Source of the DNA: a virus
Lineage: Duplodnaviria > Heunggongvirae > Uroviricota > Caudoviricetes
Direction: 5' to 3' (one strand)
IMG/VR virus record: IMGVR_UViG_3300040801_002714
Coordinates: 1 to 20,435 of that record
DNA: 20,435 nucleotides
The position numbers were made by a program, and so were the translations under genes. Below the pieces are notes generated by a model. The model did not search any database and was not told the origin of the DNA. It worked only from the letters and a program-made list of their open reading frames with translations. Each line of letters begins with the position of its first letter. Position 1 is the stretch's first letter. Below are positions 4,064 through 20,435 of this stretch, in pieces.

Positions 4064-5023
4064 TTAATTAAGTAGGAAACCTAGTACAACTGGAATAGTT
4101 ATTGTGTCTCGACCGCGTCTAACAGTGACATTGACTGTGGTACCTGGGCGCAAAGATTGAACATAATCGATTAGCTCGTAACTGGACACCATAGGTACTC
4201 CATCCACCGAAATGATAAGATCGTGCTTCTTGAGTCCACCGATCTTTGCAGGAGAATTTTTCATCACTTCTGTGATCAATATGCCTTGTGTTGTTCCTCT
4301 GCTAATAACACCGAAAGATGATCGTTTTATTTCACCTTTTTCAAGCAAAATTCTCTGGATAGTTTGCTGACTTAGTTCACTGTCAGTGGCAAGCGATATA
4401 CCGTTGCTTCCGCCTGATATTGTGATGATTGCTTGAATGATACCAATCACTTCACCGTTCATATTAAAAAGCGGTCCGCCCGAGTTACCAGTGTTCACTG
4501 CGGCATCTGTTTGTATGTAACGAATGAAGTTTTTCGCATAGTCTCTTCTGCCAGCAAAAGACACAATACCTTTTGTCACAGTAAACTCAAATCCAAATGG
4601 GTGCCCAACTGAGAACACATCCTCGCCTACTTGTGTTTCTCCCTGGTGCCACTTTACTGGTGTACCCGATACTCGAGACTTGTCTTCGTCCATTATGTCC
4701 AGCACCACAATATCAGCAGCAGGATCGTATCCCACAATCTTTGCTTTTAATCTCTTGTTTTGATTATATGCACGATAGTAGACATCAGTCGTGCCTTTGA
4801 TAACATGATAACTGGTAACAATAGTATCTTCGTCAATGAAGAAACCTGTGCCTTGTTTAACCACAGCTTCTTCGAAAATACTGTCTATTACAGAAGTGTC
4901 GGGAGCGGAGATGGCAGAAATTACCACAACGCTGGGAAGAACCTCACGTATGGTATCGGGGAAGTTTTCTGCTTGGGAAGTAGCAGAAATCAACAGTAAT
5001 ATACATAACAAAAACTGTTTCAA
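4064..5023 (-). CDS. HtrA/DegP-family serine protease (trypsin domain + one PDZ) with signal peptide
   Basis: TSYHVI (His), ADIVVL (Asp), IQTDAAVNTGNSGGPL (Ser); PDZ-like NSPAKIGGLKKHDLIISVDG. TTG start and signal peptide MKQFLLCILLLISATSQA. Confidence 0.92.
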   Translation of the reverse strand: MKQFLLCILLLISATSQAENFPDTIREVLPSVVVISAISAPDTSVIDSIFEEAVVKQGTGFFIDEDTIVTSYHVIKGTTDVYYRAYNQNKRLKAKIVGYDPAADIVVLDIMDEDKSRVSGTPVKWHQGETQVGEDVFSVGHPFGFEFTVTKGIVSFAGRRDYAKNFIRYIQTDAAVNTGNSGGPLFNMNGEVIGIIQAIITISGGSNGISLATDSELSQQTIQRILLEKGEIKRSSFGVISRGTTQGILITEVMKNSPAKIGGLKKHDLIISVDGVPMVSSYELIDYVQSLRPGTTVNVTVRRGRDTITIPVVLGFLLN

Positions 5024-6040: not shown

Positions 6041-7033
6041 CTAGCAGTATTTGGCATTCAGCATCTTACTAAATGCTTGAGAGTTATCACTGAGTCTTTT
6101 TAGATCCCACAAGCCACAAAACTTCATGAAGTGTATGCCTACATTGCCGATTGCTTCTGCGTCGGCTGCGGCAGCAATTGTGTGAGCACATGCAATCTTG
6201 ATTTCGTCTGGCTGTGCACGTAGATCAATGAGGTGTCGATTTCTTTCGTAGTCTTCTTTAACTATGTGCTCGACATCTTCGTGGTCAGTCCAGCGCTGCA
6301 ACATAAAGTTATTCCAGGCAAAGCCCTTTGCATGACGATCCTCGAATGCTTCTCTAATGCCTACTTTCTTGCTGCTGCCTTTTTCTCTAGCACCAGGGAA
6401 TGCACTAAACACATTGTCGCTCTTGTCGCCTCGAATACATTTGAGAAACAAGTGATACTCTGGATCGAGCGGCATCTTTTGCTCACCTGTTTTCTTGTCA
6501 ATCACAGGATTGCCGTTGTCGTCGTAGTATCCATCTAAGCGTATGTTAACTTTGTCGATGCCGTTATAGATAGAACAATTAGGTGCAAGTAACTGCACAA
6601 AGTCGGAATCAGAACTAAGGATAACATGTTCGTCGTGTGGGTGACTGTCTACCCAAAACGCAATAAGATCATCTGCTTCTGCATCGGAACATTTAAGAAC
6701 AGATACATTAGTCTTGGTGTCAACGAATTCGCAAAACTCGTTGAATGCATCCATCATGATTTGATCGTTCTCGGCTTCGATTTCTGTACGTGCCATGCGA
6801 TCAGCTTTGCGATTTAGTTTGTACTTTGGATAAACGTCCTTTCTCCAGCTTCGACCGTCCAAGCAGAACACGACATGATCTGCGTCAAAGTCTCTCCAAG
6901 CCTTCAACATGCTGTTGAAGATAATATGGAACCCCATGCCTATCATGTTGTCTAGTCCCGAACTAGGACTAACCACGTGTGAGGCCCGGAAGAACATATT
7001 CATTCCGTCTACAATAAGATATTTTTTAGCCAT
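6041..7033 (-). CDS. rnh: T4 RNase H-like / FEN1-family 5'-3' exonuclease
   Basis: YLIVDGMNMFFRA, EADDLIA, LSSDSDFVQL and IRGDKSDNV supply the conserved acidic motifs of the 5' nuclease superfamily. Confidence 0.88.
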   Translation of the reverse strand: MAKKYLIVDGMNMFFRASHVVSPSSGLDNMIGMGFHIIFNSMLKAWRDFDADHVVFCLDGRSWRKDVYPKYKLNRKADRMARTEIEAENDQIMMDAFNEFCEFVDTKTNVSVLKCSDAEADDLIAFWVDSHPHDEHVILSSDSDFVQLLAPNCSIYNGIDKVNIRLDGYYDDNGNPVIDKKTGEQKMPLDPEYHLFLKCIRGDKSDNVFSAFPGAREKGSSKKVGIREAFEDRHAKGFAWNNFMLQRWTDHEDVEHIVKEDYERNRHLIDLRAQPDEIKIACAHTIAAAADAEAIGNVGIHFMKFCGLWDLKRLSDNSQAFSKMLNAKYC

Positions 7034-8136: not shown

Positions 8137-9096
8137 TTACGTACCAAGCTTGTTGCCCCAGATGTAACAGTGTAGGCGACCACTCACATTGTAACCTCTT
8201 GCGATTGCCTCTTCTGCCACAGCTTGGGTGTCTTCGCTCTCTTGTGATTCTTTGGTAGCTCCAACAGGCATGATCCACACCGGCCAATGTTCGAGTCCTG
8301 CTTCTCTGAATTCCTTTACAGCTTTTTCAACTTCGTACCAGGTACGATCGTCGTTGTCGACCACAAACTTCAACTGACCATGCGGACAAACTTCAGCATA
8401 CTGTGCTACTACTTCGGGCTTGATTGCGTCGTCCCACTTTTCGCCACTGGATCGCAGCTTCGGACTCACACTCCAGAACCAAAGAGGCGCGCCTCGTTCG
8501 TCGTCGATGTATCCACCGTACATTGAACTCAGCATGAACTCTCTTAGGAAGTCTTGCATGTGATCTTCGATTGGCCGTGTGCCGTTTGTTTCCACAGTGA
8601 CCATGAGCGGCTGGTTTTCGATCTCTTTGAATCGCTCCATAATCAGTCGCATACCTTTTTGACTCATCATGGGCTCACCGCCAGTAAATGCCATGTGTGT
8701 TTCTTGTCCGCTGCCCGGGTGCTTGAACATTCCCTGCGGGTTATAAGGACTCTTCAGTGTGTCGATCAGTGTGTCGACAATCTCGCTGACAGGCTTGCGA
8801 TGTGCAAGGTGCCGGTATTCCTGGCTCCAAGTATACGAACTATCGCACCCGAACTCCCACACAGGCAAGTCTTCCATTGCGATAATGTTCGGATCAATTG
8901 TATTCTCTTCTGCAAACTTCTTGTACGGCAATTTCCAGGTGCTCGGGTCGTCTAAGTTCTCTTGTCCGAAGCCTTTGCATTCTAGGTTGCAACCCCAGAA
9001 GCGAAGCCACAGTGTAGGCACGCCGGTAAATTCTCCCTCGCCTTGAATCGAACGGAAAATCTCGCTGTAACGATATTCTTTTTCTTTATCAGTCAT
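8137..9096 (-). CDS. queE: 7-carboxy-7-deazaguanine synthase (radical SAM) with a split cysteine motif
   Basis: YSEIFRSIQGEGEFTGVPTLWLRFWGCNLEC...GCDS; FTGGEP; VETNGT; SVSPKL; C-terminal RLHCYIWGNKLGT; SD AAGGA. Confidence 0.9.
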   Translation of the reverse strand: MTDKEKEYRYSEIFRSIQGEGEFTGVPTLWLRFWGCNLECKGFGQENLDDPSTWKLPYKKFAEENTIDPNIIAMEDLPVWEFGCDSSYTWSQEYRHLAHRKPVSEIVDTLIDTLKSPYNPQGMFKHPGSGQETHMAFTGGEPMMSQKGMRLIMERFKEIENQPLMVTVETNGTRPIEDHMQDFLREFMLSSMYGGYIDDERGAPLWFWSVSPKLRSSGEKWDDAIKPEVVAQYAEVCPHGQLKFVVDNDDRTWYEVEKAVKEFREAGLEHWPVWIMPVGATKESQESEDTQAVAEEAIARGYNVSGRLHCYIWGNKLGT

Positions 9097-10235: not shown

Positions 10236-10699
10236 TTCCATCTCCACTTGGAACCAGATAATTCGTGTACTACTTTAACGGAGTCACGAATGTAAGTCAA
10301 GTCCTGGACGGAGAGCGTTTTTCCTTCTTCTAAGTGCTGCATAATCTCTTCGAACGCTTGATCTCTGCCCTTGGAGAATATTTCTTGACGCACATCGTCT
10401 GTGACTCCATGTGCTTCAACCGCAGCATATCTAAGCATGGTTGCAAACGAAGATGCAGCATCGTTTACATCAACATCGTCTCCCCAGGTCACTACGCCTT
10501 TGCTGTCCATTTCGACAAGAGTGTTATCGTCTTTGTCGTAGATAGTCAGTAGTGTATCTGAGCCAGGAGCAGAAAATTTTATTCTCGTATTCGAGATACT
10601 CGAACTTGCAATACTTTGATTGACATATGCCCTTGTGGCAACATTGCTCGAAAGTCCGGGATTTCCAAGGGTGTTATACGGGCTTGTTGTATTTGACAT
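10232..10699 (-). CDS. hypothetical phage protein
   Basis: 155-aa ORF tiling with the HIT gene. Confidence 0.6.
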   Translation of the reverse strand: MSNTTSPYNTLGNPGLSSNVATRAYVNQSIASSSISNTRIKFSAPGSDTLLTIYDKDDNTLVEMDSKGVVTWGDDVDVNDAASSFATMLRYAAVEAHGVTDDVRQEIFSKGRDQAFEEIMQHLEEGKTLSVQDLTYIRDSVKVVHELSGSKWRWK

Positions 10700-11051
10700 C
10701 TCGGTAGTTCCCCTGCTCTGGTATCACATGTCTTACTCCACCTGTGGGATCTTCCATATCTCCGGATGATCTTGGAATAAGATGAACATGTGGCCAAGGC
10801 ACAGTCTGCCCTGCCGCCTCGCCCTGATTGATGCCGACATTAAACGCTTCGATCTTGCCTAGCGATCTCATGTTGTTACCGTGTCGGTATGCTGCACCAA
10901 GAGCTCTTGCAATAGAATGAGCACTGTCGTGTCTCGGAACAAACAATAGGTGACCTTCGGTTACAGGGTACGCATCTTCGTACACCAAGTAGTCTTCCCA
11001 CTCGCTGACTAGATTTGTCCAAGGACCGATCTTTTTATCATACTCTGCCAT
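10674..11051 (-). CDS. HIT-family nucleotide hydrolase
   Basis: DAYPVTEGHLLFVPR, FNVGINQGEAAGQTVPWPHVHLIPR. The first His of the HxHxH triad is replaced by Trp. Confidence 0.9.
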   Translation of the reverse strand: MAEYDKKIGPWTNLVSEWEDYLVYEDAYPVTEGHLLFVPRHDSAHSIARALGAAYRHGNNMRSLGKIEAFNVGINQGEAAGQTVPWPHVHLIPRSSGDMEDPTGGVRHVIPEQGNYRDVKYNKPV

Positions 11052-11520
11052 TTAAATTCTCCCAGGGATAAACAACCCAATTATCATTATGTATGTTACA
11101 GGCAACATAATCTGCTGCCCATGCAGATGTGTATCTTTCGTGCAAGCAAGCAACATGAACGTTGTCTTGAAAGTTTGATTTCGGTGGAACTGCTGTTGAC
11201 CAATCCGCGAATATATCGTTTATGGTTTTGCCTGTGTCTAGGATATCATCGACAATTAATATCTTTTGTCCGTCTTGTGCGAGTTCTGGTAACCAACTGT
11301 TGTGTTCGTTTCCTATTTGTTCGTTGTAGTCTCTAGTAGCCCAGCCTACACACTGAACAGGACAACCGAGTATATGGCTCAACATGATGCCCGGCACGGC
11401 ACCGCCTCTTACCAAAGGCACAATTATATCTGGCTTGTAGTTGTCCGCTCGCATCTTTTCTACTAAGATTTCAACTAAAGAACAAACATCGTCAAAATTT
11501 AACACAGTTTTATTTGTCAT
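11038..11520 (-). CDS. type I phosphoribosyltransferase (Gpt/Hpt-like)
   Basis: IVPLVRGGAVPG and the PRPP-binding loop ILIVDDILDTGKTI. Start moved to ATG 11520 (SD GGAG). Confidence 0.88.
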   Translation of the reverse strand: MTNKTVLNFDDVCSLVEILVEKMRADNYKPDIIVPLVRGGAVPGIMLSHILGCPVQCVGWATRDYNEQIGNEHNSWLPELAQDGQKILIVDDILDTGKTINDIFADWSTAVPPKSNFQDNVHVACLHERYTSAWAADYVACNIHNDNWVVYPWENLNGRV

Positions 11521-12607
11521 CTGGGAACTCCAGGAGCTTCGCAACCATCTTAGTTGCAGTAAAATATTTTTCTAGCAGTCTCTTTTCTAGATCTGCTTGT
11601 GTTGACATTTCTGCTTCCATAATAAGTCGAATTCGGTCAATTAGCTTGTCTTTGTGCTTGACGTAGTTATTCCAGTTAGCTGTCCATACGCCAGGGTACT
11701 TATATTGCTCTGGGTACATCTCTGTGTAGCTCAGTCTGTCAGGTACCAACGGGAACACATCAAGTATTGCGCCTTCGTACGGGCTAATGCCCAGTGTCTC
11801 TTGCAGGTTCGCACTAAACATCAGTTTGCTTTTTGCCAGTAACTGATGATATTCGGACTTGCTTAGTTGCTGTTCCTGACAAACAACAAATTCATATTCG
11901 GGCAAGCTATCTCGCAAGTCATAAAAGATCTCAGGCTGCTTCTCTGGAGCAATACGATGCGGGAAGATAATGATATTTTCTTTTTCAGTGCCGTAGTACT
12001 GTCTTAGGGTTGCTGGCATGTAATCCATTGGCCAGCCTGTTCTTAATATCTTTTGCTGCTTATCAGAATCTGGTAATCCCCAGTCTCCGCCAAATACTAC
12101 GCTATCAAACAGCCCCATGTGAAAGTTTGTAGCAAACCAATTGTAGTCGCTAGCATGAAAGAAAGAGCGCTCTGCATTGTATGTCCAGCGCTTGTCTTTG
12201 ATTAGTCTGCCTAGAAAATCTTGTGGATCATAGCTTCCGGCGTGCCACATGCTGTGTATCTCTACAGGAATCTGTAACAGTTCACTCATGTACTTTAACT
12301 GTATGATACCGGGATGCCATGCGTCTGTGAACAAGAACTTATCGCCCGGCTGTATCTCCCCTGAGAAACGCTTTGCGATATCATTCATCTGTGTGTTCTT
12401 GTAAATATTGGTTTGTTGAAAGTTCAAGAACGCACCAGGAGTAGCTTCAATAGATTCTTCGCCCCCACTGATATTGATAACCTCGACATCGACGCCTGCT
12501 AGTTGTGCTTCTCTCTGTAGCATGTTCGGCACATAAGTTTTCCACTCACACGTATAGCGAGTAGGCACAGACTCGAGGTCTACAACATAGATTCTATTCT
12601 TGCTCAT
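11510..12607 (-). CDS. GT-B fold glycosyltransferase, substrate unknown
   Basis: Two Rossmann-like halves; C-terminal IIFPHRIAPEKQPE and the donor-binding-type motif FSANLQETLGISPYEGA...PLVPDRLSYTEM. Confidence 0.75.
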   Translation of the reverse strand: MSKNRIYVVDLESVPTRYTCEWKTYVPNMLQREAQLAGVDVEVINISGGEESIEATPGAFLNFQQTNIYKNTQMNDIAKRFSGEIQPGDKFLFTDAWHPGIIQLKYMSELLQIPVEIHSMWHAGSYDPQDFLGRLIKDKRWTYNAERSFFHASDYNWFATNFHMGLFDSVVFGGDWGLPDSDKQQKILRTGWPMDYMPATLRQYYGTEKENIIIFPHRIAPEKQPEIFYDLRDSLPEYEFVVCQEQQLSKSEYHQLLAKSKLMFSANLQETLGISPYEGAILDVFPLVPDRLSYTEMYPEQYKYPGVWTANWNNYVKHKDKLIDRIRLIMEAEMSTQADLEKRLLEKYFTATKMVAKLLEFPDDK

Positions 12608-12866
12608 TGCTTTCCTGTTCTTGGCTCAGTACTAGCTTTTCGATAAGTTTGTATTCGTCGTAAGCGTTTTTGAGAGATTGGTATTTTTTGAGCATTTCTG
12701 GATCTGGGTCACTCAGTATACCAATCATCTGTTCTATCTTATCTAATCTTTCGTGGACTTGTTCGAAGTGAAAATCAGCTTCATACTTTGTGTATGCATC
12801 TGTGCTCATAAACACATTATTGTCACCACCCCACATCACGCCTCTATAAGGATCTGGATTGCTCAT
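12594..12866 (-). CDS. hypothetical phage protein
   Basis: 90 aa; ATGA overlap with def. Confidence 0.65.
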   Translation of the reverse strand: MSNPDPYRGVMWGGDNNVFMSTDAYTKYEADFHFEQVHERLDKIEQMIGILSDPDPEMLKKYQSLKNAYDEYKLIEKLVLSQEQESNEQE

Positions 12867-13396
12867 TCTAGATTATTCTTCCTTTTCCATTTTTTAAGTT
12901 TTTTAAATTTAGCAGCATGAACACGTTTGGCTGTAGGACTTAGTCGGTCGTAAAAAGTAATGCCGTGAAGGTGATCTATTTCGTGCTGAAGGCAAACTGC
13001 ATCAATACCGTCTGCAACTACAGTAAACGTTTCTCCGTTTTTGTGCTCGGCTTCTACTACAACTGAATCAAAACGCTTTACGTTGACGAATACACCCGGA
13101 AAACTTAGGCAACCTTCTCGCTGCATACTTGTTTCTTCGCTGTGTTCTACAATACGAGGATTAACAAACTCTTTGCATAATGTACCTCCTTCTATAGACG
13201 TAGTGTCCATGACCAGTATAGGCATGATTAGTCCTACCTGATTAGCAGACAGTCCGATTCCTCGAGTCGCATACATTGTGTAAAACATGTCGTCGACTAT
13301 CTCCTCAATAGGAAGATAATCTGTTATGATTGTGTCGTATGTGTTTGCTTCTAGGCTCGTGTTAGGCCAAAATTTTAATTCTAGTTCTTTACCCAT
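12863..13396 (-). CDS. def: peptide deformylase
   Basis: All three PDF motifs are present: GIGLSANQ, EGCLS, HEIDH. Confidence 0.95.
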   Translation of the reverse strand: MGKELELKFWPNTSLEANTYDTIITDYLPIEEIVDDMFYTMYATRGIGLSANQVGLIMPILVMDTTSIEGGTLCKEFVNPRIVEHSEETSMQREGCLSFPGVFVNVKRFDSVVVEAEHKNGETFTVVADGIDAVCLQHEIDHLHGITFYDRLSPTAKRVHAAKFKKLKKWKRKNNLE

Positions 13397-13830: not shown

Positions 13831-14187
13831 CTAGTCTTCGTATCTTTCGATTCTTGCGCCATTTTCGTTATCCTCGCTCACCGACACAACATAGTCACGG
13901 AACGGATATTCTTCTTCTAGATAATCGAGCAGCTCTTCTGCTAGCATCTCGCAACTCTTATCATCTAGCTCAAGTGTTCCTTTTTCGTACAGACCTTCAA
14001 GCTCGCGTTTAAGCATTATAAACTCAATATCTCTGTCGTTGTGTGTAACAGTCACTTCAACACGAAAGTGAAAAATGTGTCTATGCGGGTGTGCAAGAAA
14101 GCCCACTGCAGGCGGAGCATCCGGATACTGATGAATACCTTCTTTCTGAAATGTTACCCAAATCCACTTCTTATCGTTATCACTCAT
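13831..14187 (-). CDS. QueD/PTPS-fold (T-fold) protein, DpdL-like
   Basis: FLAHPHRHIFHFRVEVTVTHNDRDIEF...SCEMLAE...VSVSEDNENG. It has LxxxHRHxF in place of the QueD CxxxHGH motif; SD GAGG. Confidence 0.75.
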   Translation of the reverse strand: MSDNDKKWIWVTFQKEGIHQYPDAPPAVGFLAHPHRHIFHFRVEVTVTHNDRDIEFIMLKRELEGLYEKGTLELDDKSCEMLAEELLDYLEEEYPFRDYVVSVSEDNENGARIERYED

Positions 14188-14392
14188 ATTCTTCCCTTAA
14201 AGCTTTTAGCAGTTTGTCACTCATTTCGAATCTAATCTTTTCTCTATTTATGTGGTCATTAACCGACACCACGTTTGTTTTCACAGACGCTACGCCCTTG
14301 ATCATTCTAATTGCATCGAGAACAGCTTCTACGTCGTCGTCTCGATAATCTTTATCGAGCGTTACTACAATGCCACTTACACGATCAGTCAT
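14180..14392 (-). CDS. hypothetical phage protein
   Basis: 70 aa, VVTLDKDYRDDDVEAVLDAIRMIKGVASV; SD AAGGTG. Confidence 0.7.
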   Translation of the reverse strand: MTDRVSGIVVTLDKDYRDDDVEAVLDAIRMIKGVASVKTNVVSVNDHINREKIRFEMSDKLLKALREEYE

Positions 14393-15386
14393 AATTCACC
14401 TTTGTGTTATTTAGGAACTGTGTTGCACAGTTATCCCAGGACCATATTTCGCTATACTTATGAACTAATCCTCTGGGCAACAGTATAGCACGATTCACGG
14501 CGTCCTGTAAATCTTCACTTAGGACTCCAGTGAGGTTTGGTTCTACAACATCAATCGGTCCTTGCACCGGATATGCTGCAACAGGCGTACCACAACTCAT
14601 TGCTTCAATCATTACTAGTCCGAATGTGTCTGTCTTGCTAGGAAACACAAAACACTTGGCGCCAGCAAATGCGTCAACTAGCTCTTGTCCTTTGAGCGCG
14701 CCACGAAACTGCAAGTCGTTTCTGTGTCCGTGTTCTTTGCGATACTGTTCTAGCATAGGACCATCGCCTACTACCACTTTGTAGCCGTCTAGTGCAAAGA
14801 AGTCTTCTAGGTTCTTTTCGATACTGACTCTTCCTACATACAGTAAATAGTTGCCTGGTTGTTCTTTGAATTGAAATTGCTCTCGGTCAACACCCCGTGT
14901 CCATGTTCTCACATTCACAAGTCGATTTGTTACCAACTTGAACATCATCTCATCTGTGGGAACTAATATGGCACTGCTTTTTCGATGAACCCATCTCATC
15001 CAATGCCATGTAAGCCATTCGGGCACATGGAACATTGCTTTTAGATACTGTGGCCAGTCTGTGTGGTATCCTGTAGTAAACTTTTTGTTTAGACTAATAC
15101 AGGCCTTCTTTGCGCGATAACCTACAGAACCCTCTGGGGTTGCGATGTGTACTATATTTGCCCACGCAATGTCGCCGTAGTATTTTTCTTTTGGTACCCA
15201 GGTGAACTTTACTTCGGGGTACGGAGTAGGAATAGAGAAACGGCCATGTTCGGGTGTTATCATCCGAACTTCGTGACCTTGTTTTTCTAGTGTCTTTGTG
15301 AGATTAGTTAGCGTAGTGACTACGCCGTTGACCTGTGGTTCCCAGGCATCACTTATTATTAGAATTTTTAGACCAGTGGATGACAC
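14385..15386 (-). CDS. GT4 glycosyltransferase, Agt-like (diacylglycerol glycosyltransferase)
   Basis: ILIISDAWEPQVNGVVTTL, HIATPEG, FTTGYHT, WTRGVD, YVGRVSIEKN, VVGDGP, FVFPSKTDTFGLVMIEAMSCGTPVAAYPVQGP. GTG start with SD GGGGAG. Confidence 0.85.
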   Translation of the reverse strand: MSSTGLKILIISDAWEPQVNGVVTTLTNLTKTLEKQGHEVRMITPEHGRFSIPTPYPEVKFTWVPKEKYYGDIAWANIVHIATPEGSVGYRAKKACISLNKKFTTGYHTDWPQYLKAMFHVPEWLTWHWMRWVHRKSSAILVPTDEMMFKLVTNRLVNVRTWTRGVDREQFQFKEQPGNYLLYVGRVSIEKNLEDFFALDGYKVVVGDGPMLEQYRKEHGHRNDLQFRGALKGQELVDAFAGAKCFVFPSKTDTFGLVMIEAMSCGTPVAAYPVQGPIDVVEPNLTGVLSEDLQDAVNRAILLPRGLVHKYSEIWSWDNCATQFLNNTKVNYD

Positions 15387-16110
15387 GAAACTCCCCTTTG
15401 TGTGTCTCTACAACTGCTGTGCAATTCTCAACCCAGTCACCTGTGTTGATGTATTCCACATCGTCGTATACTGTCATTTGTGGATGATGAATATGTCCAC
15501 AGATTACCCCATCGTAATCGTTCTTGCGAGCATAGTCTGCTAATTGTTCTTCGAACTTGTTGATAAAGTTCACTGCTCGCTTTGTGCGATCTTTTAGGTA
15601 TTTACTTAGGCTCCAGTATTCCATGCCGAACATTTTTCTTATTGCGTTCAGCTTAGTATTGGCCCAGATTAATATCTCGTATGCTTTGTCGCCTAGGTGC
15701 ATGATCCACTTTAGGTCGGCTCGCATGAGGTTATCGAACATATCGCCGTGCACTACAAGATATCGTTTTCCTGACAGTGAAACATAATCTTGTCTATTCG
15801 ACACACTGATATTTCCAAAGCTAATCTCATCGCGAATGTACTGTCGCAGTGCTTCGTCGTGATTGCCGACTACATATTCGACTTGGGTGCCTTTGTTTGA
15901 TTTGCGAAGAACACAGCGTATGATTTCGGTATGGCGTTCCGGCCAATACACTCCCTTCTGCATACGCCAGCCATCAATTATGTCACCTACGAGATAAAGA
16001 TTGTCGCAGGTATTGTTTTTTAAAAAATCCAGTAGCTGCTCGTCTCGGCATCCTCTAGTACCCAAGTGAGTATCGCTAATAAAGATGCTACGATAGTCTG
16101 TCTTTTTCAT
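15349..16110 (-). CDS. plcP: PlcP-like metallophosphoesterase (often annotated UDP-2,3-diacylglucosamine hydrolase / LpxH2)
   Basis: FISDTHLG, LVGDIIDGW, GNHD (not the LpxH GNRD), HGDMFD, CGHIHHP, YINTGDWVE. Confidence 0.85.
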   Translation of the reverse strand: MKKTDYRSIFISDTHLGTRGCRDEQLLDFLKNNTCDNLYLVGDIIDGWRMQKGVYWPERHTEIIRCVLRKSNKGTQVEYVVGNHDEALRQYIRDEISFGNISVSNRQDYVSLSGKRYLVVHGDMFDNLMRADLKWIMHLGDKAYEILIWANTKLNAIRKMFGMEYWSLSKYLKDRTKRAVNFINKFEEQLADYARKNDYDGVICGHIHHPQMTVYDDVEYINTGDWVENCTAVVETHKGEFRVIHWSKNSNNK

Positions 16111-16130: not shown

Positions 16131-16508
16131 TTAAGGCCGGCGGCGTCGGACCGGAGGAGGAGTTGGTGCACCTGTTGGTTTTCTGTTGGCATAAGATCTT
16201 GCAGTTCTTTGCTTTTCTCTAATGTCGTTTGGATCCGGTTCTCGAAGTGCACGAATCACCACATCCTCTTCACGGCAATAATCAGGCCGGCCAATTTTGA
16301 TTTCGTATCCACCTGCCATCAGTGGAGCCGTTGGATGCTCATATACACACATTCTTCTCCCAACATATTCGAGCCAGTGCTTTCTATGCAGCCCAAGATC
16401 TTCGTCGTATATGCGAACTGGATACCAAGCAAACCATCGGTGCCAGCGGCATACACGACTTACTTTTATATCGAATTTCTCTTGTGCTGTAGGACTCACC
16501 CAATCCAT
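16131..16508 (-). CDS. 'WFAW.PV' paralog 4
   Basis: MDWVSPT...RWHRWFAWYPVRIYD. Start moved to ATG 16508 by alignment with the upstream paralog (MRWVSPS). Confidence 0.75.
   Translation of the reverse strand: MDWVSPTAQEKFDIKVSRVCRWHRWFAWYPVRIYDEDLGLHRKHWLEYVGRRMCVYEHPTAPLMAGGYEIKIGRPDYCREEDVVIRALREPDPNDIREKQRTARSYANRKPTGAPTPPPVRRRRP
16417..16445 (+). repeat. 29-bp direct repeat, copy 1
   Basis: ACTGGATACCAAGCAAACCATCGGTGCCA, identical to 16802-16830. Confidence 0.9.
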
Positions 16509-16509
16509 C

Positions 16510-16893
16510 TCATTGCGGTGGTTCGTAAATGCCTTCTGCTTCGGCAATCTCAGGATCACCCTTTGTGTCGTTTGGCCTTTCCCATTCGCCCTTTATTTGT
16601 GCTTTTCGCGCATCGTTGATTTCCGGTTCTCTTAGAGCTCTTACTACAACGTCTTCCTCGAAGCAGTATTCGACGTGACCAAGATATTGACGGTTAGTGT
16701 TCAATGAATATTCACCATAGCGGTGATACACAGTTTTTCGCCGGCCCACATTTTCGAGCCAGCACTTTTTGAAAAATTTGATTTCCGGATCATAGATGCG
16801 GACTGGATACCAAGCAAACCATCGGTGCCACCGAGCTTGTTTTTGTGCTTTAATCCAAAACTTTTGCTTGCTGCTAGGACTCACCCACCTCAT
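16510..16893 (-). CDS. 'WFAW.PV' paralog 3
   Basis: MRWVSPS...RWHRWFAWYPVRIYD...EEDVVVRALREP. Confidence 0.75.
   Translation of the reverse strand: MRWVSPSSKQKFWIKAQKQARWHRWFAWYPVRIYDPEIKFFKKCWLENVGRRKTVYHRYGEYSLNTNRQYLGHVEYCFEEDVVVRALREPEINDARKAQIKGEWERPNDTKGDPEIAEAEGIYEPPQ
16802..16830 (+). repeat. 29-bp direct repeat, copy 2
   Basis: Identical to 16417-16445. Confidence 0.9.
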
Positions 16894-17096
16894 CTCCCCC
16901 TAAGCTCCGTGACTAGTGCATCGTGCAAGAAGTAGTACTGCCACACCCAGTCTCCGTAAAACTGCGCATCGTGTGAATCCGCAACTCGACGTCTGGCTAC
17001 ACCGCGCAGCCAAATCATTTTGTGATATTCAACGTGCGGGTCCCAAACCCAAACAGGGCGCCATGCAAACCAAGGCTTCCACTGTGACACGACCAT
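16890..17096 (-). CDS. 'WFAW.PV' paralog 2
   Basis: QWKPWFAWRPVWVWD...WLRGVARR. Confidence 0.7.
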   Translation of the reverse strand: MVVSQWKPWFAWRPVWVWDPHVEYHKMIWLRGVARRRVADSHDAQFYGDWVWQYYFLHDALVTELRGR

Positions 17097-17101
17097 ACTA
17101 G

Positions 17102-17371
17102 TTATGCGTTGCCGACCAGGCGATCTGCTACAACATCACCAGTGTCACGATATTCGGTGAACCGATGATTATAGAACAATCCGTCTTTGTAAAGACGCTG
17201 CTGAACAGTGCGACGAACGACGCCTACACAAAAGCGCCAGCTTTTGGTACCGTCAGACTGAACGAGTTGCACAGGATGCCAGGCCCACCACTTTGACCAG
17301 AGACTGGTCTTTTCTTCGTAGATGCCATATCCGTCTTCGTTCATTTCCATTTTTGCATCTGTTCCGTCCAT
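17102..17371 (-). CDS. 'WFAW.PV' paralog 1
   Basis: LWSKWWAWHPVQLV...VGVVRR; SD GAGGA. Confidence 0.7.
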   Translation of the reverse strand: MDGTDAKMEMNEDGYGIYEEKTSLWSKWWAWHPVQLVQSDGTKSWRFCVGVVRRTVQQRLYKDGLFYNHRFTEYRDTGDVVADRLVGNA

Positions 17372-17374
17372 TGC

Positions 17375-17938
17375 TTAATCCTCTTTAGGCTTGTTACGGC
17401 GAATTTTACGTAAAGCTTTAATATCACTGTCACGCATAATAACTTCGTCGTTGCCGTAGTCAACCCAGGGAGTAAAGCGATTTCTGTCCAGCAAATCGTG
17501 CTGTGGAATACACCACACACCTGTGTTAGTGCCTTGGAAATCAGTATCGTCTACTTTTAGTACTAGATTCTTACTAAAGGTTTCGACGTAAGGCACAATG
17601 CAACTTACCATCGGAATAAAGTGGGGGTGCGCTGCATACTTGCCAGGCAATGTGTCTACCACAAACTGCTGAGCGCTTGCAGGATAGTCCAGTGTTACCC
17701 AGAAGCCTTCATCCAACAGAGCAGGAACAATCTCTGCCCATAGCTTGTTATTCTGAAAACTTCTATTAGCACCTAGATAAATGTGTGGACAGTTGTGTTC
17801 TCTTGCGAGATCAATCATTTGTTGAATACCACGAACACCTACAACAAAAAGTGTCTTCTTGCTAAATGCAGCACTGGTTTCGACTTCTGGTCCTACAAAG
17901 TACACAGCATCATCGTGGTCTTGTCTCTCGATAGTCAT
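17375..17938 (-). CDS. hypothetical protein near the DpdA-like gene
   Basis: 187 aa, YFVGPEVE...KTLFVVG...HIYLGANRSF...WVTLD...FIPMVS...LKVDDTDFQGTNTGVWC; SD AAGGA. Confidence 0.75.
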   Translation of the reverse strand: MTIERQDHDDAVYFVGPEVETSAAFSKKTLFVVGVRGIQQMIDLAREHNCPHIYLGANRSFQNNKLWAEIVPALLDEGFWVTLDYPASAQQFVVDTLPGKYAAHPHFIPMVSCIVPYVETFSKNLVLKVDDTDFQGTNTGVWCIPQHDLLDRNRFTPWVDYGNDEVIMRDSDIKALRKIRRNKPKED

Positions 17939-18135
17939 GATAGTTTTCCTTTAATAGTTTTTGCACACTGGCTAGCAGAACGGCCATTCATGTAACTGAG
18001 ACAGGCGTAGTCAAAAATCACAGCACCTAGCCCGCGGCCGTTAATCTGATGCTTGTCTGCATCAGCAATAAACTCCGACCCTAGCTCTGCTTTAACTTTG
18101 TCAAGATACTCGACTAACTTCTCAGGATTGGCCAT
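17935..18135 (-). CDS. hypothetical phage protein
   Basis: 66 aa; SD GGAG; overlaps both neighbours. Confidence 0.6.
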   Translation of the reverse strand: MANPEKLVEYLDKVKAELGSEFIADADKHQINGRGLGAVIFDYACLSYMNGRSASQCAKTIKGKLS

Positions 18136-19660
18136 TGCGAATCTCCGTTTCTAGTTCGTCTAGCTTCTCTTCTTCGGCTTCTGTGAAGCCTTCGTCTTCG
18201 GCGTGATCACTTTGCATCTCAAACATTTTAGCAAACAGCGGATTGTTCTCGCCGCCTTGTGTTCTTGAGCCGCTTACGTCTTGCAGGAAGTTTCTATTGT
18301 CCTCTAGCATCTGCATTGGTGCATCGCTAGTAAACAGATCCTCCACAAACTTATCAAAGAACAAGATGTTACGCGGTACCCATTTAGAGAATTCTCCGCT
18401 CTTGTCACTCTTCTTAAGCTTCTTCCATTCTGTAATGTCAGGACGGAATCTTGCAGTTTCGATAGCAGTCAAGTGGTTAGCAATTTGCACAGCACGGATA
18501 TGCTGGTAAACATTGTGCACCATTATTAGTGCATAACTCATGCTGTCCCAAGATGTCTTGCGCTCTTCGCCTTTAGTATTAAGGTTCTCTCCGGGTCCAT
18601 GGCGACAAATGTCACCTACAGTCATACGTCTACCGATCTCACTTTCGAAAGGATAAGGAATATCACTGCCTTTGAGGTCTTTATTATCTGGCGCTGGTTC
18701 CATGATATAACTGTAACGGCTGTTAGTGTGAATAGGAGCCGTGTAAGTCATCCCGTTCGCTGTTGCAATGAACGGACTAGCGCAGTCGAAGCTAATTTGT
18801 AAATTAGGATTAACGTGTTTGCGAAGCTGTCGCTGAACAGACGTAAGCATAGATGCCCAGTCCAGTCTCGAGGTACCGAGAAAGTGCATCCAGTCCTTGC
18901 CTTCTAGCCGGCCTTCGTCTCGCAGTATAATGAGTCGCTTGAGCGCAACATACATATCGCGCATATTCTTGCCACCCATTGCCCAGCCTTCGAACTCGTA
19001 ATCGCGCACAGACTCATACCAGTGCTGTGCTTCTTCCCAGTTAGATCCTTGTAGTACATTCAAGAATTTAGTCGCCCCTAAGCGATTGTCTAAGAAGAAT
19101 TCGTTGTTGAACTGTGTTGCATCCAAACAGTCTTGGAATGTTTTCAGTCCAGTGACTTTTGCTCTCAACGGGTTTGCAGCCCAGCTAGGCACATCAAGCA
19201 CCATGCTCCAGTCTGCTGTGTATTCTAGCCAATTGAGAATAGCCATTCTTGTGTTATCGGCGTTGCCTTTATAATTAGCATCGCCTTTCTTTTCGTAGAA
19301 GTTATCCCAGTCAAACTTGAGAACACCCTTACCAATCTGGAAACCACCGGAGTCGCCTAAGATCATAGTCTGTTCACGATCTCTCTGGTGAATCATTCTC
19401 TCAACGGGCTTTTCAGGATTAAGGCATTTTTCTAGATTAAGTTCAGCATGGCCCGCTGAATACAGAGCAGTGTCGTAATAGAAACTGCCTTTGTCTTTGT
19501 CTAGAAAGTTTAGACTATCGAAACCGTTTTCGAATGCGTCCGGTAATCTATCCTCGCCAATTTTTCCGTTCCAGCACGTATCGAGCATGGATGTATAGAA
19601 TCCGGAAATAGCCGGAAGGAATAGGGCATAGTCCTTCTTTTGCCCGTTAAGATCTTTCAT
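18122..19660 (-). CDS. dpdA: TGT-fold guanine transglycosylase, DpdA-like
   Basis: TGT motifs appear in the expected order: LGDSGGFQ, MVLDVP, NVLQG, GWAMGG, WMHFLG, ISFDCASP. At 512 aa it is longer than bacterial Tgt and lacks the CxCxxC zinc site. The subfamily is not determined. Confidence 0.75.
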   Translation of the reverse strand: MKDLNGQKKDYALFLPAISGFYTSMLDTCWNGKIGEDRLPDAFENGFDSLNFLDKDKGSFYYDTALYSAGHAELNLEKCLNPEKPVERMIHQRDREQTMILGDSGGFQIGKGVLKFDWDNFYEKKGDANYKGNADNTRMAILNWLEYTADWSMVLDVPSWAANPLRAKVTGLKTFQDCLDATQFNNEFFLDNRLGATKFLNVLQGSNWEEAQHWYESVRDYEFEGWAMGGKNMRDMYVALKRLIILRDEGRLEGKDWMHFLGTSRLDWASMLTSVQRQLRKHVNPNLQISFDCASPFIATANGMTYTAPIHTNSRYSYIMEPAPDNKDLKGSDIPYPFESEIGRRMTVGDICRHGPGENLNTKGEERKTSWDSMSYALIMVHNVYQHIRAVQIANHLTAIETARFRPDITEWKKLKKSDKSGEFSKWVPRNILFFDKFVEDLFTSDAPMQMLEDNRNFLQDVSGSRTQGGENNPLFAKMFEMQSDHAEDEGFTEAEEEKLDELETEIRNGQS

Positions 19661-19663
19661 TGA

Positions 19664-20404
19664 TTAAGTCCTTGCAGGAAGAATGTACTCGTAGTTGCCA
19701 AGACCGCTGTCGATGTCAATCTTCAGTGCGCCCTGATCTGAGAAGCTCATAGTGCAGCTTGCACTAGTTTCTTGCAGTTTTAGAATTGCAAGTACCTGAG
19801 GTAGCGGCCAACTCCACTGATGCTTTAGTTCGCCTTCAATGTCGCTAGCAAACACAAGAGCACTTCGGTCGTTTGCGCCAGAGCCAATCAGGAACTCTAA
19901 GTTGTCGCCGCGAGTCCTAACTGTGAATGTGCTCTCGAATGCGCCCAAGATGTTGTTCATGGATGTGAGGTCTTGCAGTGCGCTTTTTGTAGGAGTAATA
20001 ACCACATCCCACTGTGCACCCTTGAACGGTGGTACTTGGATCTGTTCCTTTGCCATCTCAGCGCTCATAAAGCGATAGCTAGCAACGTGTCCTTGGTTAG
20101 AATCAAATTTAACTTCACAAGGAATGTCTACCCCGTTGCGCTCCTGAGACACAATTTCTACTTCAGCGTTATCATTACTGAAGGGAGAAAAGTTCAAGTA
20201 GCCTGCCAGTACGCCTAGGCGAGACATACCAATAGTGCCTTCTAGTCCAGCGATAGCATTGTTCTGCTCGCCGTACATAACGACAGTTCTGTCTTGGTCC
20301 ATTGCTTCAAGCTTAACACCGTCTTCTTCGCCTGTTAGCTTTACCATTTCGATAAAGCCGAGACCAGAGGTATGCTTGATGATATCTAGAAAATTATCTA
20401 ACAT
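19664..20404 (-). CDS. putative DNA polymerase sliding clamp (gp45/PCNA-like)
   Basis: About 246 aa, acidic, with a two-domain beta-rich pattern and C-terminal YEYILPA. Resembles large-phage clamps from memory. SD AGGAG lies 6 nt before the ATG at 20404. Confidence 0.5.
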   Translation of the reverse strand: MLDNFLDIIKHTSGLGFIEMVKLTGEEDGVKLEAMDQDRTVVMYGEQNNAIAGLEGTIGMSRLGVLAGYLNFSPFSNDNAEVEIVSQERNGVDIPCEVKFDSNQGHVASYRFMSAEMAKEQIQVPPFKGAQWDVVITPTKSALQDLTSMNNILGAFESTFTVRTRGDNLEFLIGSGANDRSALVFASDIEGELKHQWSWPLPQVLAILKLQETSASCTMSFSDQGALKIDIDSGLGNYEYILPART

Positions 20405-20435
20405 CACATGCTCCTTTATTGTTATTAGATGTGCG

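Follow-up and report, generated by a model that had tools for sequence, protein, structure and literature searches.

What is a glycosyltransferase doing inside a phage gene cluster for 7-deazaguanine synthesis, and could it place a sugar on a DNA base? The question is raised by a stretch of 20,435 nucleotides (hereafter the window; positions 1 to 20,435 of IMG/VR record IMGVR_UViG_3300040801_002714, Caudoviricetes) in which a gene that we call GTX (11510-12607) lies between a DpdL-like gene (13831-14187) and queE (8137-9096), all three on the same strand. An initial annotation made from the sequence had noted this position, which the coordinates bear out, and had proposed that a GT-B glycosyltransferase genetically linked to dpdA might decorate a deazaguanine or another base. 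On balance, the evidence presented here leans towards GTX being a dedicated accessory of the DpdL branch of deazaguanine metabolism that makes a sugar-decorated 7-deazaguanine.

The window covers the first 20.4 kb of a 97-kb contig from an uncultured virus. Since CheckV puts this contig at only about 25% completeness, the phage is probably a jumbo phage. All long open reading frames (ORFs) of the region lie on the minus strand, and positions 11510-12607 hold an uninterrupted 365-aa minus-strand ORF with an ATG start; the plus-strand reading is broken by many stops. Both the ORF and the motif singled out at the outset, HAGSYDPQDFLGR (residues 122-134; WHAGSYDPQDFLGR when read over residues 121-134), are found as described, and the strand, which had not been named, is minus. 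GTX overlaps orf90 upstream by 14 nt and a phosphoribosyltransferase gene downstream. Database searches returned at least 8000 homologous proteins at E ≤ 1e-3 in a 90%-clustered collection (best non-self E 1.4e-166) and 1117 cluster representatives in a 50%-identity-clustered collection, so GTX is a real conserved gene and no chance ORF. Alignments of the relatives begin at residue 2-6, which speaks for the 365-aa start; the gene call stored in the database for this contig (P0001, 337 aa) begins too far downstream. Megablast of the whole window against phages gave no match. A search of genome contigs for GTX found a single 2-kb fragment of a metagenome-assembled genome only, so that close cellular homologues of the window protein are not in evidence.

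The window GTX has no match in Pfam, PHROGs or NCBIfam, and a phmmer search against the PDB returned nothing meaningful. As the single-sequence AlphaFold2 prediction was not usable (predicted local distance difference test score, pLDDT, of 40), we instead used a model based on an alignment of 106 diverse relatives, which also served for the conservation analysis. AlphaFold2 predicted from this alignment (pLDDT 96.2; predicted TM-score, pTM, 0.93) a two-Rossmann GT-B fold with an inter-domain cleft, which matches many GT4, GT5 and GT20 structures with Z scores of 20-25.7 over 290-330 aligned residues (Foldseek probability 1.00). The best match is sucrose-phosphate synthase (6kih, Z 25.7); BshA (3mbo, Z 24.3; Foldseek E 2.7e-11), MshA (Z 23.7), GlgM, LmbT, PglA, glycogen synthase and the tetrahydrobiopterin glucosyltransferases 9v0l and 5zes (both Z 20.7) are further ones. 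Structure prediction thereby confirms the proposed assignment of GTX as a GT-B glycosyltransferase.

Sequence comparison refines the class. The family profile aligned with the donor domain of the glycosyltransferase 8xsg in the PDB (E 6.4e-6) and also with 2f9f, and 77 of the 106 relatives match PF00534 weakly (E ≤ 0.01; best 4.5e-9). An EX7E signature, E270-x7-E278, is located in the C-terminal donor-binding domain. Across the 106 sequences E278 and E296 are invariant, E270, R218 and K223 are conserved in at least 90%, and H122-A-G is nearly invariant; the EX7E and R/K region also aligns with an ordinary GT4 enzyme encoded in the window. A separate group of conserved residues (E12, R17, Y18, W22, Q73, D95, W97, H122, D127, D130 and E146) marks the N-terminal acceptor domain. 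Taken together, the motifs and the model indicate a divergent GT4-like, retaining-type enzyme that is apparently catalytically intact. Because the window protein falls below the thresholds of every curated glycosyltransferase model, we file GTX as a putative divergent relative of the GT4 clan, outside PF00534 as currently modelled. The earlier description of the protein as unlike an Agt-type GT4 therefore holds in so far as all Pfam thresholds are missed, and fails in so far as the weak PF00534 matches and the E270...E278 signature make it GT4-like.

If GTX acts on a deazaguanine, it should travel with the deazaguanine genes. We searched 50,697 phage records by tblastn and, in addition, with a hidden Markov model (HMM) of the GTX family. 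tblastn found GTX in Sinorhizobium phage Phosso (51% identity), eleven PA5oct-like Pseudomonas jumbo phages (42%), Acidovorax phage ACP17 (34%), Xanthomonas phages BUDD and X1 (24%) and Synechococcus phage BUCT-ZZ01 (22%), and the HMM added Burkholderia phage BCSR5 (E 6.6e-68). BCSR5, missed by tblastn, had been a candidate for a DpdL-positive phage without GTX and was rejected as such on the strength of the HMM hit. In every cultured carrier examined, GTX is located beside DpdL and near QueE and DpdA, except that DpdA of Phosso is encoded elsewhere in the genome. Gene order is permuted: dpdA-GTX-dpdL-...-PRT-queE in PA5oct, where GTX is gp317 and PRT is a phosphoribosyltransferase gene; queD-folE-orf187-dpdA-GTX-dpdL-queE, between uvsX and a primase-helicase gene, in ACP17, whose GTX is ASD50404; folE-...-GTX-dpdA-dpdL-queE in BUDD; and queE-PRT-queD-folE-GT-dpdA-dpdL-GTX in BUCT-ZZ01. 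In Phosso, dpdL overlaps GTX by 4 nt and is followed by folE and queE. The start and stop codons of the two genes overlap or abut not only in Phosso but also in ACP17, BUCT-ZZ01 and the metagenomic locus L125. In BCSR5, dpdL and then GTX precede a 446-aa protein (L120 10238-11578), which is followed by queE; this protein bears VDSGGFQ and HVLGV motifs, was not found by two DpdA HMMs and, judged by these motifs, is probably a third, very divergent DpdA type.

The GT of the BUCT-ZZ01 order is a second glycosyltransferase-like protein, 447 aa long (L031 7004-8347), which lies between folE and dpdA and weakly matches PF13692 and PF00534; some clusters thus carry two transferases.

The metagenomic record agrees. 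From single queries of four clades we examined IMG/VR loci comprising 25 of window type, 4 of BUDD type and 80 of ZZ01 type, the ZZ01-type clade alone occurring on at least 600 IMG/VR contigs. Where at least 5 kb was available on both flanks, DpdA was present in 61/61 loci and DpdL in 60/61, with a median DpdL-GTX gap of 265-794 nt. Five loci that appeared to lack DpdL (L004, L006, L019, L022 and L025) were rejected as exceptions, as their GTX ends no more than about 1.2 kb from the contig end where DpdL is expected. Two peripheral metagenomic members, 26% and 32% identical to the window protein, have DpdL directly upstream and DpdA downstream. Among cultured records, DpdL accompanies the DpdL-linked GTX in 18 of 18 cases, against 29 DpdL records overall (Fisher p ~5e-62, uncorrected for relatedness). 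Many of the sampled loci come from a few large lineages, so that these counts overstate the number of independent events. What gives the linkage its weight is that it persists in six or more deep lineages although gene orders are permuted, flanking genes differ and the DpdA proteins fall into three divergent types, among clades of DpdL-linked GTX that share only 22-51% identity. The co-occurrence and synteny check proposed in the initial annotation is thus positive, and the linkage to dpdA, dpdL and queE that it presumed is real: the distribution of GTX is not independent of dpdA. The tightest partner of GTX is DpdL rather than DpdA.

The dependence runs one way. Five complete DpdL-positive genomes (RHph_I1_18, Bakedbeans, Ahp1_CNU-2021, D479 and phiST) lack any GTX family member in a search that recovered 5/5 known carriers; one of them, RHph_I1_18, encodes the DpdL closest to that of the window (58%). 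phiST DNA contains 2′-deoxy-7-deazaguanosine (dDG), which is unglycosylated, and its 7-carboxy counterpart dCDG, as determined by mass spectrometry (PMC10516641). Since DpdL-linked GTX occurs with DpdL in every phage record that carries it and these five genomes do without GTX, GTX needs the DpdL pathway while the pathway does not need GTX. GTX is an add-on to the DpdL pathway, as would be expected of a tailoring step that acts after DpdL.

In Vibrio phage Bakedbeans, DpdL forms the C-terminal part of a 383-aa protein (gp176, L121 5194-6375; HMM match within a single annotated CDS), which suggests that DpdL is here fused behind an uncharacterised N-terminal domain of some 260 aa, in a phage that has no GTX.

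The genes of the window on which the following argument draws are, from the upstream end of the cluster:

19664-20407, minus strand: clamp-like gene; homologues are annotated as sliding clamp
18122-19660, minus strand: DpdA-like DNA guanine transglycosylase, long form, 512 aa, recognized by motifs and hhalign
17375-17938, minus strand: orf187, conserved protein of unknown family, recognized by its recurrence in related loci
16131-17371, minus strand: four tandem small paralogous ORFs (142, 127, 68 and 89 aa) with shared motifs
15349-16110, minus strand: LpxH-like metallophosphoesterase, 253 aa (PF00149/PF12850; weak NCBIfam matches to LpxH, UDP-2,3-diacylglucosamine diphosphatase)
14385-15386, minus strand: ordinary GT4 glycosyltransferase, 333 aa (PF00534/PF13439)
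13831-14187, minus strand: DpdL, a QueD paralogue (T-fold protein of QueD fold) and proposed 7-carboxy-7-deazaguanine decarboxylase, with the motif LAHPHRHIF
12863-13396, minus strand: peptide deformylase, between dpdL and GTX
12594-12866, minus strand: orf90, small protein with a relative in PA5oct (gp319); its gene overlaps the start of GTX
11510-12607, minus strand: GTX, predicted divergent GT4-like (retaining-type) GT-B glycosyltransferase, 365 aa, assigned from the ORF, AlphaFold2 model, structure matches and motifs
11038-11544, minus strand: xanthine/guanine-type phosphoribosyltransferase (PRT; PF00156, E 1.2e-13; weak NCBIfam XPRT/HGPRT matches)
10674-11051, minus strand: HIT-family protein (PF01230, E 4.6e-9)
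8137-9096, minus strand: QueE, radical SAM 7-carboxy-7-deazaguanine synthase (phrog_2076, E 6e-59; N-terminal NCBIfam QueE matches)
6041-7033, minus strand: FEN/RNase H; the PA5oct homologue is annotated RNase H

The DpdA-like protein of the window has no Pfam match and no PDB match by sequence or DpdA profile, so its assignment rests on motifs (GDSGGFQ and FDCASPF) and profile comparison: hhalign aligned it with a group of phage DpdA proteins of about 425 aa annotated as tRNA-guanine transglycosylase (E 8.5e-5, 234 columns), with the DSGG(F/L)Q motifs in register. It is 41% identical to PA5oct gp316. The LAHPHRHIF motif of DpdL fits the LxxxHRHxF signature described in PMC10516641; the protein matches phrog_17812 and is 50% identical to DpdL of ACP17 and 36% to CGPG_00067 of phiST. 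QueD is encoded at 96370-96858 of the same contig, 76 kb from the cluster. FolE was sought on the 97-kb contig, about 25% of the genome, and not found there; none of the scanned window ORFs matched a QueC model, with no search aimed at QueC.

The fold, the conserved donor-site motifs and the genetic linkage are shown by these data, whereas catalytic activity, acceptor, modified atom, sugar and timing relative to DpdA are inferred. In the pathway that we propose, FolE, QueD and QueE would make 7-carboxy-7-deazaguanine (CDG), with QueE as the CDG-forming step, and DpdL would convert CDG to 7-deazaguanine, a decarboxylase role that has been proposed and not demonstrated (PMC10516641). DpdA would swap the 7-deazaguanine for guanine in phage DNA, and GTX would transfer a sugar from a host nucleotide-sugar onto the deazaguanine. 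It might do so on DNA after insertion of the base, like the T4 glucosyltransferases on 5-hydroxymethylcytosine, or on the free base before insertion, like HuiG on the 2-amino group in huimycin biosynthesis. The pathway would thus end in a glycosylated 7-deazaguanine, which would block restriction more broadly than the bare base. That this base is present in the DNA of the GTX carriers (the window phage, PA5oct, ACP17, BUDD/X1, BCSR5, Phosso, BUCT-ZZ01 and hundreds of metagenomic aquatic phages), made downstream of DpdL and DpdA, is a serious prospect that we would place a little short of probable.

Two published observations fit this proposal without proving it. Expression of ACP17 dpdL and dpdA in E. 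coli gave no dDG, and the authors suggested a missing enzyme (PMC10516641). The DNA of PA5oct is resistant to cutting at several restriction sites that contain G, and END nucleases specific for hypermodified DNA sense it, the chemistry of its modification being undetermined (PMC12191111).

Several points, besides the overcounting of related loci, weigh against it. We found neither a glycosylated deazaguanine nucleoside nor such a base in phage DNA in the literature searched, which covered few subscription-journal papers. 7-Deazaguanine has no hydroxyl group, and a sugar would have to be attached at N2, O6, a ring carbon or the CDG carboxylate, none of which is established for DNA. The closest enzymes of solved structure use small soluble acceptors, which fits a free base or metabolite as well as DNA, and GTX has no profile similarity to the T4 α-glucosyltransferase. 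The GTX family is acidic (median isoelectric point, pI, 5.7; window protein 5.25), which counts for little because T4 AGT (pI 6.11) and the window DpdA (net charge -20) are acidic too; with T4 BGT at pI 9.05, overall pI or net charge does not discriminate as a proxy for DNA binding. A complex prediction for GTX with DpdL scored 0.02 and counts neither for nor against binding. Finally, a GTX paralogue of the PhiXhv-12 group (25% identity) sits with GlmS and a deacetylase and without DpdL, so the wider GTX family is not restricted to deazaguanine.

In Xanthomonas phage PhiXhv-12 (L030 7756-10990), that paralogue directly follows GlmS and a deacetylase of LmbE/BshB type, with neither DpdL nor QueE nearby, an arrangement that suggests transfer of N-acetylglucosamine (GlcNAc) to an unknown acceptor followed by deacetylation.

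The closest described system is the dDG pathway of Cellulophaga phage phiST, with DpdL and DpdA3 (Cui, Hutinet et al. 2023; PMC10516641), which shares with the window system and its relatives an apparently QueC-less route, FolE (found in relatives such as ACP17), QueD, QueE, a DpdL of the LxxxHRHxF type and a DNA transglycosylase. In contrast, phiST has no GTX anywhere in its genome and no orf187 homologue in the locus examined, and its DpdA3, of 259 aa, shows no more than marginal similarity to the 512-aa DpdA of the window. To the phiST set the window cluster adds GTX, orf187, the PRT and, unlike any other locus examined, a second GT4 paired with an esterase of LpxH type. We regard it as a deazaguanine DNA-modification system with a built-in sugar transferase, set apart from phiST by its conserved glycosyltransferase, by orf187 and by different DpdA subfamilies.

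For action of GTX at the DNA level, the functional model is provided by the α- and β-glucosyltransferases of T4, which are likewise GT-B phage enzymes encoded among replication and early genes and transfer a sugar from a host nucleoside diphosphate sugar to a non-canonical DNA base. The acceptor in T4 is a hydroxymethyl pyrimidine; no hydroxymethylase was detected among the window ORFs scanned, on a contig representing about 25% of the genome. Profile comparison of GTX with T4 α-glucosyltransferase (hhalign probability 1.3%, E 0.039 over 21 columns) indicates no relatedness beyond the fold class, and AGT and BGT are absent from the listed top structural matches of GTX, which are GT4, GT5 and GT20 enzymes. 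By this sequence comparison GTX is not a member of the T4 AGT family.

For action on the free base, the parallel is HuiG of huimycin biosynthesis, a GT4-type enzyme that links GlcNAc to a 7-deazaguanine base through its exocyclic 2-amino group (PMC7439116), a linkage also carried by the dapiramicins. HuiG is assigned to PF13439, and its gene stands next to folE, queD and queE; its likeness to GTX is one of class and neighbourhood. It belongs to actinomycete secondary metabolism, however, where the acceptor is the O6-methylated preQ0 free base, no DpdA is involved and the product does not enter DNA. BshA, MshA and sucrose-phosphate synthase, which match GTX over the whole chain (Z 23.5-25.7, 295-314 residues) and share its EX7E and R/K donor logic, are only 8-15% identical to it; the N-terminal domain of GTX has a conserved set of its own, and neither thiol nor sugar metabolism figures in its genomic context. 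Vertebrate queuosine glycosyltransferases, which form mannosyl- and galactosyl-queuosine, add a sugar to a 7-deazaguanine derivative already in tRNA, using a hydroxyl of the cyclopentenediol as the acceptor. Queuosine-type side chains need the QueC route, for which, as noted, no scanned window ORF gave a match and no aimed search was made.

Could GTX act on something unrelated to deazaguanine? Its target might be a DNA base of another kind, a protein of the phage or its host, or a glycan of the envelope, with the linkage reflecting nothing but a shared early replication module of related large phages. The clusters do sit within replication modules containing clamp, polymerase and RNase H/FEN genes, many of the structural neighbours are GT4-like phage enzymes whose targets are not DNA, and the PhiXhv-12 paralogue shows that a relative can occupy a sugar-metabolism context in which DpdL is missing. 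Yet the adjacency of GTX to DpdL survives changes in the replication genes, in gene order and in the DpdA subfamily; the two genes overlap or abut in four loci; and no DpdL-linked GTX occurs without DpdL in the phage records searched. Nor was a hydroxymethylase seen among the window ORFs scanned. We therefore consider an unrelated acceptor unlikely.

Less likely still, to the point of being improbable, is that DpdL and GTX act as a unit of two enzymes and produce a soluble glycoside that stays out of DNA, either a pterin glycoside, by analogy with cyanobacterial PTPS and tetrahydrobiopterin glucosyltransferase, or a huimycin-like deazapurine. The closeness of the DpdL-GTX pair would suit such a unit, as would the PTPS/QueD fold of DpdL, whose decarboxylase role is a proposal only, the small soluble acceptors of all the best structural matches, the presence of tetrahydrobiopterin glucosyltransferases (9v0l and 5zes) among those matches, and the precedent of HuiG, which glycosylates a free deazaguanine base. 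Against this, BGluT is no better a match than a dozen other GT4 enzymes, the DpdA found in all 61 full-flank loci points to DNA as the destination of the pathway, and phiST, which has DpdL and no GTX, carries dDG in its DNA and so ties DpdL to a DNA base. That GTX has lost sugar transfer and serves DpdA or DpdL as a scaffold or substrate-binding partner, as its failure to match any curated glycosyltransferase model might hint, is very improbable given the (near-)invariance of E278, E296, R218, K223, E270 and H122-A-G over 106 members, the pattern expected of an active enzyme.

To our knowledge, the deazaguanines described in DNA so far carry small C7 substituents, and the known sugar decorations of phage DNA sit on pyrimidines; a sugar-bearing purine in DNA was not reported in the literature searched. 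If GTX glycosylates a 7-deazaguanine in DNA, the product would combine these two strategies in a base new to phages, possibly the first sugar-bearing purine in DNA and a new class of anti-restriction hypermodification. Such a base would be relevant to restriction, to CRISPR and to the glycosylase and END-type defences by which modified G is sensed. It might account for the failure of ACP17 dpdL and dpdA to yield dDG in E. coli (PMC10516641) and for the undefined modified G of PA5oct, a therapeutic candidate (PMC12191111). It would be common in aquatic and soil viromes, given the at least 8000 proteins of the family and the at least 600 IMG/VR contigs of one clade, and would matter for sequencing, in which hypermodified DNA can be under-represented. 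Several GTX carriers are cultured, so the proposal is directly testable.

Among the neighbours, orf187 is a second uncharacterised candidate component of the deazaguanine pathway. It is present in 11/11 window-type and 43/48 ZZ01-type full-flank loci and in ACP17, usually between dpdA and dpdL, and its invariant residues include T29-L-F, G34, H52, S60, K128, D130-D131, N138, G140, W142 and W158. Pfam, PHROGs, NCBIfam and a PDB profile search returned no match for it, and the ESM Atlas gave no usable lead. The PRT also recurs (L031 5075-5548 and L002 14327-14761): it has homologues in PA5oct gp321 and an 'XGPRT' of BUCT-ZZ01, and 42/48 ZZ01-type loci encode it. One possible role is to return guanine freed by DpdA to GMP/GTP and so feed FolE; another is the synthesis of a deazaguanine nucleotide. 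The HIT-family gene is an occasional cluster member, found in 4/25 window-type loci.

The ordinary GT4 of the window overlaps the LpxH-like esterase by 38 nt, and the pair is inserted between dpdA/orf187 and dpdL. It is absent from all other loci examined and is thus a lineage-specific insertion, whose nearest phage matches are only 27-32% identical and look bacterial; it could provide a second sugar step or be an unrelated moron. This second GT4 was also considered as a conserved partner of the DpdL pathway and rejected, as it has no counterpart in other clusters.

The remaining genes of the region are of less immediate bearing. orf90 is 31% identical to PA5oct gp319 (E 1.8e-6), whose gene lies just after dpdL. 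A peptide deformylase gene is also found directly before queD in Rhizobium phage RHph_I1_18 (L119 2341-2922), which may be a coincidence. The four small paralogues at 16131-17371 share the motif W-x2-W-x-A-W-x-P-V and a downstream W...V..R...Y..D...L, and none of them matches Pfam. Beyond the cluster, at 4064-5023 on the minus strand, the window encodes an HtrA/DegP-like serine protease with Trypsin_2 and PDZ domains and an N-terminal hydrophobic, signal-like segment, an unusual cargo beside a replication module.

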